Positions 41,744 to 44,153 of a stretch of 64,000 nucleotides of DNA are shown here, piece after piece (position 1 is the stretch's first letter; every line of letters begins with the position of its first letter). This DNA is from Candidatus Heimdallarchaeota archaeon. GTDB lineage: Archaea > Asgardarchaeota > Heimdallarchaeia > JABLTI01. The translations under genes were made by a program, and so were the position numbers. The notes under the pieces were generated by a model. That model saw only the letters and a list, made by a program, of their open reading frames with translations, was not told where the DNA came from and searched no databases. The stretch spans positions 25,171 through 89,170 of the forward strand of contig JAHLVW010000025.1 of the NCBI GenBank assembly GCA_019058275.1. The letters are read 5' to 3'.

Positions 41744-41809
41744 TGAGCTTCTCCTATAGAATCATTACTAAACTCTGCTCTTAAACACTGCTTTGGAAAA
41801 TTAAACGAT

Positions 41810-41989
41810 TCATTTTGTTATGCGTTCCATTATAATAGTATCCTCATCTTTTGCATAAATCTCCCATACTTCTCCCTCTTCTATCGTTAAGGTGTCAATG
41901 ATCTCCTTAGGTATTGTCATACGCATACTGTCTCCCATCTTGCCTATTTTTCGTTTGAACCTTATTATCGGTGGTATCTTTTCTACCAT
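41810..41989 (-). CDS. AbrB/MazE/SpoVT-type DNA-binding protein (59 aa; not in ORF track)
   Basis: Manual translation MVEKIPPIIRFKRKIGKMGDSMRMTIPKEIIDTLTIEEGEVWEIYAKDEDTIIMERITK. Confidence 0.8.
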   Translation of the reverse strand: MVEKIPPIIRFKRKIGKMGDSMRMTIPKEIIDTLTIEEGEVWEIYAKDEDTIIMERITK

Positions 41990-42046
41990 TTTAACATCAA
42001 TTGATATTTACTCTCACAACATATTAATTTTCCCATATGAGAAACG

Positions 42047-42075
42047 TTTAAATATATTATATATGTATATTTAAA
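42047..42075. promoter_or_regulatory. Palindromic divergent promoter/operator between abrB and cas7
   Basis: Perfect 10-bp inverted repeat TTTAAATATA-N9-TATATTTAAA, giving a TATA-like box on each strand. Confidence 0.55.
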
Positions 42076-43001
42076 TGGTGATTAAATGGTTAATATATGA
42101 TCGATTAACAGTCAAGGTCTATGCCTGGTTTACGAAAACACTAAACGGGAGTAATGGATCAAGTTCTTATCTTATGAAGGGAGGGGAAGTTCCTTATCAA
42201 TATCAAGGAAGAACAAACGTTAAGGTTGCAGAGTTGGAGAAATTCATCTCAACCAACAAGAATTTGATAATTAATGACTGTTCAGAATTGCGAGCTAAGG
42301 CGGAGGGAAAGAAAGATGATGAGAAAATACAAGTCATTATTCTTAAAGAAGAGCACGGAAGCTCTCGAATAGTGAAGGGTATTCGAGGTGCGATACGACA
42401 TAGGATAATGGAAATACTGCATCAGAAAGGAATCCCTTACTGTTCTCCAACTATGAAAGAGCGATTCAAAGGAAGCAATGAACCAACACTACTAACTAAT
42501 GAACACCTCATGGGAAAATGTGATGAGCAACCTTGCTCAGTAAGGCAGTTATTTGGAATGCTCGGAGAGAAGTCGTCTATTAAGGTTTGGTCTGATGTGC
42601 TTGTTCAGACAGATAAATCTAAAGAGAATATCACAACGCAAAAGGGAATCTCTTTTGTGCACGTAGCAACTGAGAATTGACATGCAGCTCGAAGGGATGG
42701 GAAAACCCTACAAGATTTCAGTGAGCAGTACTTCAGCGGAGCATTTCAATTCTATGTAGAATTCTCAGAAGACCTTCCCCAATGGTTACTTGGATTACTT
42801 GTTGAGGGAATTCTCTCAATAAAGCATCTCGGTCGAGGAAGCAATAGTGGATATGGTCGCCTTGAGATAAAAGAACTCGCTTTTGAGCAAGTGACATTTG
42901 AACGAAAACTAGGAACGGAAAGTGAGGGGAAAATTACCATCGTTGAAGAGGAGCAAAGCACACCCCAAAACCAACTCCTACAGGAGTCTTTAGAGAAATA
43001 A
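42075..43001 (+). pseudogene. Cas7/Csm3-like RAMP protein interrupted by one in-frame TGA (42678-42680)
   Basis: KGIRGAIRH; Zn insert C..H..C...CSVRQLFG; ATEN*H; read-through continues in frame to the G-loop LGRGSNSGYGRL and TAA 43001. Confidence 0.8.
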
Positions 43002-43063
43002 AAAACATAAAACAAAAGAAAATTGCAACTCTAATCAGTCAGTTAACAAGCCCAATAATTATC

Positions 43064-44119
43064 TTGAAAACAACATACTGGAAACACGGTTGTTTAGTAA
43101 AGGTCATTGGAGATCTAAAAACAGATTCAAAAGCTATTTTTACCCCTCTTGGCAAGTTAGTCTATGGAGAAAGAGAATATCCTACTATTTTGAATGGGGT
43201 TCGAGGGGGTGTAAAAATCAGTTGGGTGGGGAAGTCAGAAGAACAATTAAGAAAGAAGCTTGAACAATTCCTTCAGAAAAGATTCATGGGAACGAAAACA
43301 ACTGAAGGATTTGGTCGAGTTGTTTGGGAATCGTGTGAAATACAAGAGTTTACACAAAAAGCTATAACTGTGGTTATTAAATTATCAGAAAAATGTCCTC
43401 AATGCAAGAAAAAAACAGTCATCTATGAAAAAACAGCTAAACAAAAACAATGTACTACTTGTCACCAAACATGGCACTACAAAAAACTCAAAATAAGAAC
43501 AGGTATACGAGCTGATTATCCTAAAGAACTACAGAAGCTACTCATAGCACTTTTGCTACATGATTTCGTACACACAGCAAAACATCACAGCAAAATCTTT
43601 CAAGAGATAAGCATTAATGATGAAGTGATAGCTGACGCATGTAAAAACCACCATCAACTAGCAAGGGGGGAAAATAAATATCAAATTTTAGTACAGTATT
43701 ATGACAGACTAGCCTCTCGTATCAGTCGCAAAAAACCTTTACACACAACTTTCCGATACAATAAATTACAAGGATCGATTGATTTTAAGCAACTGAAACA
43801 AGAAATAGAAGAAAGACAAACAAATCACGTAAAACTTTATTCCTATATTTACAACTCAAAAGAATTAAAAAGAATAGTCGAAGCTTTAGACTATGGGAAA
43901 AATCCATTGCGAAATCATCTACTAATAATGGTGAATATGGCAATAAATGATTACTATAGCAAAAAATTAAAAGTAAACAAAGGAAATATCTCACTATCGG
44001 CAAGTGAAAGAGGAAAACTCGACACTGCTATGGATGCTGAGAAGCATTCCTTCACTGACCATGATAACGCTAACTCTGAGAGCCCAACCAACTCAAAGAA
44101 GAGAAGGCTAGAAACATAG
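43064..44119 (+). CDS. Cas5-like RAMP + Zn ribbon + Cas10-type (permuted) HD nuclease fusion; frame open upstream to ~42998
   Basis: Upstream in-frame 'LTSPIII' RAMP beta1; G-loop MGTKTTEGFGRV; CPQC..CTTC; ALLLHDF..HH..YDRLAS..LRNHLL. Confidence 0.7.
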   Translation: MKTTYWKHGCLVKVIGDLKTDSKAIFTPLGKLVYGEREYPTILNGVRGGVKISWVGKSEEQLRKKLEQFLQKRFMGTKTTEGFGRVVWESCEIQEFTQKAITVVIKLSEKCPQCKKKTVIYEKTAKQKQCTTCHQTWHYKKLKIRTGIRADYPKELQKLLIALLLHDFVHTAKHHSKIFQEISINDEVIADACKNHHQLARGENKYQILVQYYDRLASRISRKKPLHTTFRYNKLQGSIDFKQLKQEIEERQTNHVKLYSYIYNSKELKRIVEALDYGKNPLRNHLLIMVNMAINDYYSKKLKVNKGNISLSASERGKLDTAMDAEKHSFTDHDNANSESPTNSKKRRLET

Positions 44120-44153
44120 GCAGAGAAGAAAAACGATAAGAAAAAAATCGTTT
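43988..44153 (+). ncRNA. Putative structured ncRNA overlapping the 3' end of the Cas5-HD gene (copy C)
   Basis: Three-copy conservation with compensatory changes; terminal hairpin AAACGAT/ATCGTTT. Confidence 0.6.

Follow-up and report, generated by a model that had tools for sequence, protein, structure and literature searches.

What RNA could a CRISPR-like effector use when its locus holds no CRISPR array? The question is raised by a RAMP module at positions 42075–44119 of the window (the whole stretch of DNA that was analyzed, 64,000 nt of contig JAHLVW010000025.1 from a Candidatus Heimdallarchaeota archaeon), which consists of a gene for a Cas7-fold RAMP protein and a gene for a protein with RAMP, Zn-ribbon, and HD parts. 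Array-less modules termed HRAMP and ARAMP have been known from genomes since 2019–2020, and reviews describe their mechanism as enigmatic and, in view of the missing array, expect it to be distinct from CRISPR (PMC8730458; PMC12669027). As these reviews relay the original descriptions, ARAMPs, as yet untested, are array-less type III derivatives of Asgard archaea that were predicted in 2020 (Makarova et al., 2020, CRISPR J 3:156; 2019, FEMS Lett; via PMC8730458, PMC12669027), and most of them have a distinct Cas1 homolog in the locus (PMC8730458). Neither of these two reviews mentions an RNA associated with ARAMP or HRAMP.

The first gene (42075–43001, plus strand; 308 codons) encodes a Cas7-like RAMP protein with a Zn-binding Cys/His insert, recognized by the Pfam RAMPs model (28.8 bits, above the cut-off) and by the PADLOC Csm3 model (1e-6). 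Its AF2 model (pLDDT 83.4) gave 88 Foldseek matches against the PDB at E ≤ 1e-3 (best E 8e-7), and the matches listed are all class 1 backbone RAMPs, mainly Cas7 of types VII, I, and III, in agreement with the Cas7-like fold proposed in the initial annotation. In the window this gene contains an in-frame TGA (42678–42680); position 42678 is a C (CGA, Arg) in Logan contigs of three runs (X1, X5, and X6), including the probable source run (depth 113), and the gene is therefore probably intact.

The second protein (43064–44119, plus strand) is modeled as joining a small Cas5/Cas6-like RAMP domain (residues 1–90), a Zn ribbon (residues ~100–140), and a Cas10-type HD nuclease domain (residues 153–313) with its metal-binding residues intact; residues 314–351 form a disordered tail (AF2 model, pLDDT 82.8). 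The assignment of the HD domain rests on VIA-align (Z 8.3 and 7.5 against the HD domain of Csm1/Cas10, 4.8 against Cmr2), because Foldseek against the PDB returned weak rows (E 0.15, Csm1 topmost); in the alignment to Cas10 the HD part alone was matched (chain residues 2–227). Residues 1–90 reached a Z of only ~4 against the C-terminal domain of Cas6 and the RAMP domains of Cmr proteins. Among homologs of the protein, H166, D167, H196, H197, and H285 are invariant, D214 is nearly so, and the G-rich loop of the small RAMP domain is conserved. The architecture read earlier from the letters, a RAMP domain followed by a Zn ribbon and a Cas10-like HD domain, was supported.

The absence of an adjacent array, cas1, cas6, and Cas10 Palm domain, also part of the initial annotation, was borne out: none of these was found near the module, and an array search and a Pfam Cas1 search of the genome contigs detected neither an array nor cas1 on its contig. 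CRISPR arrays of this genome lie on contigs C4, C26, and C68 only. Matches to the Pfam Cas1 model, which a more diverged Cas1 may escape, lie on C26, C76, and, weakly, C48, none of them a contig with a RAMP copy, and the same model found no Cas1 homolog at the locus of the window or near any of the seven RAMP copies. The ordinary arrays of the genome could be a source of crRNAs in trans, which speaks against a dedicated RNA partner of the module. The tail of the element described below (GAUAAAAC, AUAGAAAC) was compared with the ends of the genome's CRISPR repeats (ATTGAAAT), and the likeness was too weak to use.

Judged by these features, the protein pair appears to correspond to the ARAMP of the reviews, as the initial annotation had suspected in noting that the protein part might be known. 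Like ARAMP, with HRAMP the closest known kind, it comes from an Asgard host, comprises a highly diverged Cas7 and a putative, highly diverged Cas5-like RAMP, is array-less and associated with a nuclease, and is closest to type III; unlike most ARAMPs, the locus is devoid of a Cas1 homolog detectable with Pfam, and its nuclease is a Cas10-type HD domain fused to a small RAMP. With type III Csm and Cmr systems it shares the Cas7 fold, an HD domain closest to that of Csm1/Cas10, and a small RAMP with a G-rich loop, but it has two genes only and no Cas10 Palm/cyclase domain, Cas11, Cas6, or array, so that the combination of Palm/cyclase and array that marks type III CRISPR-Cas is missing; its candidate RNA, moreover, is large and structured rather than a repeat-derived crRNA. 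Types IV-B and IV-C are likewise reduced, type III-like class 1 modules. Type IV systems are plasmid-borne and usually have arrays or DinG/CysH-like partners. The Csf1 protein of type IV-C has a Cas10-related HD domain (PMC8730458), and type IV-B complexes form on non-CRISPR RNA (bioRxiv 10.1101/2020.07.31.231399); type IV-B, however, binds heterogeneous RNA, whereas the module of the window has a dedicated, conserved candidate.

That candidate, and not the protein pair already described as ARAMP/HRAMP, is the new part of the locus: a covarying element of ~180 nt (43988–44165, plus strand) that spans the stop codon of the HD gene, overlaps its last ~45 codons, and is made of two multi-helix domains and a terminal hairpin. 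Domain 1 (43988–44043) is a hairpin with an outer helix AUCUCA/UGAGA(U) and variable inner helices. Scored on alignment A6 against a hand-written structure (MAFFT put six of its rows one base off), it has 78.7% of cells paired, against 24–52% when the pairing is slid, with compensatory changes in 10 of 16 pairs; 0–1 of 500 shuffles equaled the observed pairing. Domain 2 (44055–44123), drawn from RNAalifold and pair counts, has four stacked helices, the outermost of which (CUG.CCAUG/CAU.GGCAG) includes the HD stop codon (44117–44119). Its cells are paired at 95.2% in 19 sequences (compensatory changes in 11 of 21 pairs) and at 92.7% in 35 sequences (15 of 21), against ~35% when slid, and none of 500 shuffles matched the observed pairing. 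The loops of both large domains are invariant. The terminal hairpin (44131–44153; 5–7 bp, A-rich loop) was seen in the majority of 34 copies, and its stem sequences are unrelated between copies. A Shine-Dalgarno-like tail seen in alignments (GGUGAUAGAUAC, 44154–44165) reaches the neighboring gene, here a tRNA gene with two insertions of 37 and 34 nt (44166–44299, plus strand; Rfam RF00005, 32.9 bits) that lies flush against the element. Rfam recognized tRNA only, both in the window and in 43850–44330, even at E ≤ 5. The initial annotation had placed the element in the tail of the HD gene, which holds, and had let it run to 44153; it ends at 44165 and starts near 43988. The alignment of homologous loci around the stop codon that it had proposed confirmed the covariation (19 and 35 sequences).

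The element is constrained in its nucleotides and base pairs, and the peptide is not the target. Identity at synonymous codons climbs from ~0.45 across the final 40 codons of the HD gene, with values of 0.79–0.92 in windows starting at codons 311–326 and ~0.45 elsewhere, and the same nucleotides of the tail are read in different frames across homologs, as KKRRLGT before a stop, EKARNIG..., or LDHEQS before a stop. G·U pairs are frequent (U·G in 25 of 34, G·U in 21 of 30); because these would become A·C on the opposite strand, the RNA is placed on the strand of the HD gene. Two further candidates were rejected: promoter-type constraint in the codons for LRNH...AINDY, where synonymous identity is at baseline (0.38–0.48), and a fusion reading frame from the conserved AUG of the element into the Rpo7-like gene, which is open in one of five species.

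The element outlasts the decay of the protein genes. A model of it has 41 matches in 10 of the 11 genomes of the genus, many of them orphans, and the gene-tail DNA that the initial annotation had described as conserved in three places, folding with covariation, is indeed present in the window at about 43858–44165, 15585–15897, and 31997–32251. The first orphan (15585–15897, plus strand; 110 bits) keeps the last ~75 codons of an HD gene, now interrupted by stops, together with the RNA element (15761–15897), and adjoins a minus-strand tRNA (15900–16008) at the tRNA's 3′ end; the second (31997–32251, plus strand; 133.8 bits), again gene tail plus element (32115–32251), ends where the RFC small subunit gene begins (ATG at 32252). 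Orphans occupy identical sites in several species, directly 5′ of housekeeping genes (RFC, Rpo7-like, ESCRT-III-like, ABCE1, S19e, and EF-2), and at the RFC site a GAG/CUC pairing in genome G000 corresponds to AAG/CUU in the orthologous copy of G010, a compensatory change; to judge from this change, the orphans seem to be under continuing structural selection. In a second genus (g4) the HD genes stop earlier and are directly followed by a different structured RNA (21 pairs, 18 of them compensatory) that has a AGAAGGnnnGGA motif in common with the element of the window, so that a structured RNA is tied to the HD gene in two Heimdallarchaeial families.

These observations can be brought together in one reading, to which we give about even chances: the module is an ARAMP-type, array-less type III derivative, and the element is its transcribed, dedicated RNA partner. 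The element would be transcribed either together with the operon, as its 3′ end, or from an AT-rich linker directly 5′ of the element, and would replace the crRNA in the RAMP-HD complex, with Cas7 subunits coating the RNA that adjoins a hairpin or handle held by the RAMP domain. Because the RNA reaches the next gene, often at its start codon and sometimes at a tRNA, the neighboring transcript or locus may be a cis target of the complex. A covarying RNA linked to the effector operon in two families is a concrete candidate for the RNA component of ARAMP; binding by the proteins would reveal how a class 1 effector can do without an array, and might yield a compact, RNA-programmed HD nuclease, whereas an unbound element would nonetheless be a new structured RNA, present in many copies and lying before core genes for replication, transcription, and translation in an Asgard archaeon.

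The last point leads to the rival that survives best, which we nevertheless consider unlikely: the element would be a cis-acting leader that gives a downstream host gene its promoter, structured 5′ UTR, and Shine-Dalgarno sequence, is not bound by the RAMP proteins, and, having arisen at the end of the HD gene, was retained since essential neighbors depend on it. In genus g1 the element ends 0–15 nt before the start codon of the RFC, ESCRT-III-like, ABCE1, S19e, Zn-ribbon, and Rpo7-like genes, and a divergent copy beside EF-2 lies ~50 nt upstream; identical sites are occupied in two to five species whether the protein genes are present or absent; and six element-free species have a native TTTAAAAA region at RFC, which both G000 and G010 lack. 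Orphans lying before housekeeping genes, and at RFC in place of the native promoter, could therefore persist merely as promoter or leader, independently of any RAMP protein, and the at least ~55 codons of gene tail found 5′ of the RNA in every orphan examined fit such a role. The origin of the Shine-Dalgarno-like tail is ambiguous, because at the RFC site the host gene has a Shine-Dalgarno sequence of its own in a similar motif, GGTTAT. What a leader does not explain is that four copies adjoin tRNA genes, in two cases in a tail-to-tail arrangement, positions at which a leader would serve no purpose; that in three copies of genus g4 whose next gene was identified (L045, L047, and L049) the RNA ends ~90 nt before a gene with its own Shine-Dalgarno sequence; that two large domains with invariant loops exceed what a leader needs; and that RNA and HD gene are linked in two families.

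A dedicated RNA partner also invites comparison with the OMEGA systems of TnpB and IscB, drawn in the initial annotation and sound as far as the position of a structured RNA over the 3′ end of the effector ORF, up to the edge of the unit, and the orphan copies are concerned. Taken further, the RNA would be a scaffold that runs on at its 3′ end into the flank, the flank acting as guide, and the RAMP-HD complex or the LAGLIDADG nuclease encoded nearby would cut element-free sites, which in a polyploid cell would allow the unit to be retained or to home; this is improbable. In its favor, the LAGLIDADG-HTH cassette is paired with TnpB at other loci, the unit is present in G000 and its site is cleanly empty in the sister species G004, where the orthologous tRNA is inverted, and the orphan at RFC is patchily distributed. 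The block that appears to have been gained or lost measures ~4.5 kb, not the 2.3 kb first estimated; the LAGLIDADG-HTH gene also belongs to the unit. Yet the effector is a multi-subunit class 1 complex (Cas7 plus RAMP-HD) instead of a RuvC protein in an IS200/605-type transposon; no TnpA or other transposase and no target duplication was found for the unit, and no convincing terminal inverted repeats around 39800–44800. The copies look mostly site-orthologous across species and therefore vertically inherited. Within the RNA every variable segment lies inside a stem, leaving no unstructured variable stretch usable as a guide, and the 40 nt beyond each of seven elements lack a second genomic match, the extra matches being other tRNAs only. 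What would have to act as guide is either a tRNA or the beginning of a housekeeping gene on its sense strand; a flank that is the sense strand of a host gene cannot pair with the host mRNA, and at RFC the tail itself is partly host-like. By analogy, ARAMP at large might be an RNA-guided class 1 effector, the multi-subunit counterpart of TnpB and its omegaRNA, with scaffold and guide from one cis-encoded RNA at the operon end and a flank that directs retention, homing, or control of the neighboring gene, a generalization that we hold to be likewise improbable.

Least probable is that the element acts as DNA, as an end used in recombination or transposition, with hairpins formed by the single-stranded DNA and the orphans as solo ends: it does lie at the edge of the gained or lost block, solo copies do occur, and IS200/IS605-type elements use hairpin ends, but its many G·U(T) pairs are found on one strand only, it is long and has several domains, the unit is without an HUH or other recombinase, and neither a matching element at its opposite end nor a left-end motif common to RAMP-type units was found.

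The same unit includes a cassette that is oriented divergently from the RAMP module and, under the reading of the element as RNA partner of the complex, would be a shared control or mobility module, used with TnpB and NERD nucleases as well. It comprises a gene for a 542-aa LAGLIDADG-HTH protein of WhiA-like layout (40115–41743, minus strand; Pfam LAGLIDADG_3 at 3.4e-8, HTH_19, and HTH_3) and one for a 59-aa AbrB/SpoVT-like (MazE-like) protein (41810–41989, minus strand), the latter recognized as AbrB and divergent from the Cas7-like gene in the initial annotation and matching Pfam MazE_antitoxin at E 4e-5 with 23.9 bits, just below the cut-off of 24.7 bits. WhiA/meganuclease-like cargo has been mentioned beside TnpB (PMC10691335). 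The LAGLIDADG-HTH gene has ~22 copies in the genome, and those whose upstream flank is assembled are mostly divergent from an effector, be it the RAMP pair, TnpB, or a NERD nuclease; the copy of the module on contig C89 is likewise accompanied by a similar small AbrB-like gene.

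The Cas7-like RAMP gene (42075–43001, +) and the HD gene (43064–44119, +, 351 aa) stand in a block (40115–44299) that opens with a LAGLIDADG + HTH gene (542 aa, −) and a 59-aa AbrB/SpoVT-like gene (−) and closes with a tRNA gene (44166–44299, +); G+C content is low across the window (about 33%), and database homologs of the HD protein carry the names Candidatus Heimdallarchaeota or Asgard group archaeon. The Cas7-like gene contains a single in-frame TGA (42678–42680). In Logan contigs of three runs, among them the probable source (depth 113), base 42678 is C, which restores CGA (Arg), so the gene is most likely intact; this base is the sole difference between the source-like run and the window, and the TGA is most likely an assembly or minor-variant artefact. 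RAMP-pair genes do decay, since in a related strain (run X5; ~1% base divergence over the stretch) the HD gene has lost 13 nt at 43573, within its HD motif region. A 201-aa database protein (P0012, 98% identical) fits truncation by this deletion. The tRNA gene, missed by ARAGORN, has insertions of 37 nt in the D region and 34 nt at the anticodon loop; its ortholog in the sister species G004 (locus L093, about 1380–1486) is reversed and lacks the first insertion.

Both proteins are of the kinds proposed in the initial annotation. The Cas7-like protein exceeds the Pfam RAMPs cut-off and matches Csm3 in PADLOC; its AF2 model (pLDDT 83.4) has 88 Foldseek matches in the PDB at E<=1e-3, and all those listed are class 1 backbone RAMPs, mostly Cas7, led by type VII (8e-7) and followed by I-A, III-A Csm3, IV, I-B and gRAMP. 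The HD protein model (pLDDT 82.8) is confident except at residues 314–351. When it was compared with 48,161 chains by VIA-align, residues 153–313 were best matched by the N-terminal HD domain of Csm1/Cas10 (Z 8.3 and 7.5), with Cmr2 third (Z 4.8); residues 1–90 resemble Cas6 C-terminal and Cmr RAMP domains at a Z of only about 4, and a Zn ribbon occupies residues about 100–140. Across 40 homologs, H166, D167, H196, H197 and H285 never vary and D214 is almost invariant, thus the nuclease site looks intact.

The RAMP pair is present in about seven copies, intact and broken, in the window's own genome (contigs C11, C105, C89, C88, C86, C25, and C82), and the LAGLIDADG-HTH gene in about 22. Most LAGLIDADG-HTH copies with an assembled upstream flank lie head-to-head with an effector, which may be the RAMP pair, TnpB (one form carries an OGG/HhH-GPD glycosylase fusion) or a NERD-nuclease protein of 650–730 aa. 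A second LAGLIDADG-HTH gene in the window (539 aa, −) repeats the arrangement of the RAMP unit: it lies head-to-head with a TnpB-like gene crossing the window end, the pair occupying 61102–64000. The glycosylase fusion (800 aa; L024:3280–5679, G000:C88:38322–40724) joins OrfB_IS605 and a Cas12f1-like TNB to OGG_N and HhH-GPD, and its LAGLIDADG-HTH partner is broken; the NERD-type partners (L026:1966–4161, L027:3110–5059; about 5–6 copies in the genome) end in a NERD/Mrr-like nuclease domain. In G004, the orthologous flanks, a 223-aa gene (left) and a PLC-like gene (right, 91% nucleotide identity), are ~360 nt apart and enclose only the orthologous tRNA, in opposite orientation, with no LAGLIDADG, AbrB, Cas7 or HD gene and no RNA-element remnant; the whole block was therefore gained or lost between species. 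It measures ~4.5 kb, not the ~2.3 kb first estimated, and no terminal repeats were found around it. Past the tRNA, and not adjoining a LAGLIDADG gene, a hairpin with a T-run (44445–44527) shares ~77% identity with stretches that follow the LAGLIDADG genes of four TnpB-type units (C27, C33, C105, and C50) at a distance of 50–165 nt, and may be a terminator or a remnant of another unit.

Neither a CRISPR array nor cas1, both initially described as missing next to the module, was found on the window's contig or on any contig bearing a RAMP-pair paralog; ordinary arrays of this genome are on C4, C26, and C68, and Cas1 is on C26 and C76. The protein part, suspected to be known, is: the module is an ARAMP, the name given in reviews (PMC8730458; PMC12669027) to Asgard systems derived from type III but lacking an array, differing in that no Cas1 lies alongside. 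Its candidate dedicated structured RNA is undescribed as far as the literature could be read.

This RNA (about 43988–44165, +) overlaps the 3′ end of the HD gene, whose last ~250 nt, with ~45 nt past the stop, recur at 15585–15897 and 31997–32251, among eight copies genome-wide. The encoded tail is disordered in the AF2 model; among homologs its nucleotides are translated in differing frames (...KKRRLGT*, ...EKARNIGREK..., ...LDHEQS*), local compensating indels shift the frame across a conserved ACCAUGA motif, and synonymous-codon identity rises from about 0.45 over the gene to 0.79–0.92 in windows starting at codons 311–326. The constraint is therefore on the nucleic acid and not on the peptide, as had been noted from the three copies in the window. 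Domain 2 (44055–44123; RNAalifold, 19 copies) nests four helices, the outer one containing the HD stop codon: 95.2% of cells are paired, against ~35% in slid controls, 11 of 21 pairs show compensatory changes and 0 of 500 shuffles reach this level. Among 35 model matches, whose alignment was fitted to the covariance model and is thus biased towards structure, the corresponding values are 92.7%, ~35%, 15 of 21, and 0 of 500. Domain 1 (43988–44043), in a plain MAFFT alignment of 30 copies, has 78.7% of cells paired (slid controls 24–52%), 10 of 16 pairs compensatory and 0–1 of 500 shuffles reaching this. A terminal hairpin (44131–44153) has an A-rich loop and a 5–7-bp stem unrelated in sequence between copies. 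G·U pairs are common (one position is U·G in 25 of 34 rows, another G·U in 21 of 30); read from the complementary strand they would become A·C, so the element folds on the sense strand of the HD gene. The fold with covariation holds up, and no Rfam family matches it.

A covariance model detects 41 copies across the window's genus (g1), in 10 of 11 genomes. Of 34 copies inspected, about a third lie behind a near-full-length HD gene and the rest behind a fragment or nothing detectable: the protein genes decay and the RNA stays. The same neighbors recur between species, including an Rpo7-like and an ESCRT-III-like gene (five species each), ABCE1 (three), a Zn-ribbon gene (two), S19e, tRNAs (four, both orientations) and the RFC small subunit (G000 and G010, both orphans), and a divergent copy precedes EF-2. 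Variable parts common to copies at one site suggest that these are orthologous, and a compensatory change between the two RFC orphans (GAG/CUC to AAG/CUU) shows continuing selection on structure without protein genes in cis. The initial annotation had reported the three places in the window, and its observation as a whole is confirmed and extended.

The g1 element ends in a Shine-Dalgarno-like (U/A)AGGUGAUAAAAC, usually with the next start codon directly after it. The Rpo7/RpoE′-like gene (L029:3904; orthologs in L090, L091, L083, and L069) has no ATG, GTG or TTG for >30 codons, and its apparent start in five species is a conserved ATT 7 nt after AGGAGA. Six element-less species have their own aGGTTAT...ATG at RFC, so part of the tail may be host sequence, and a promoter-like region with TTTAAAAA ~125 nt upstream; the orphan takes the place of that region in G000 and G010, so RFC must, judging from the sequence, now be transcribed from or through it. 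A leader or promoter-capturing element independent of the RAMP proteins would fit this replacement and the tail, and would explain why orphans are retained. It is nevertheless an unlikely account, leaving unexplained the copies that meet tRNAs tail to tail, an RNA of this size with invariant loops, and the arrangement in a second genus, g4 (family f3).

HD genes of g4, ~40% identical to those of the window over the HD domain and ~32% over longer alignments, terminate directly after an NLIVQDF motif and are followed by a different RNA of ~110 nt (compensatory changes in 18 of its 21 predicted pairs, and a second hairpin), sharing with the g1 element the motif AGAAGGnnnGGA. Since HD genes of both genera have structured RNAs that differ in sequence, the association is older than either RNA sequence. 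Mainly for this reason we connect the RNA with the RAMP-HD proteins, as a candidate partner of their complex, a reading with about an even chance of being right. That the RNA truly acts as an OMEGA-like guide or in homing is improbable, and a DNA-level end of the unit more improbable still. Of the six g4-genus loci compared, five have no LAGLIDADG gene within ~5 kb and carry, upstream, two further conserved genes that match nothing in Pfam; the remaining one (L109, G041) has a LAGLIDADG link like that of g1. The upstream pair (L107:3092–4537, L108:3336–4777) is co-directional with the Cas7/HD pair, encodes about 240 aa each and may represent further subunits.
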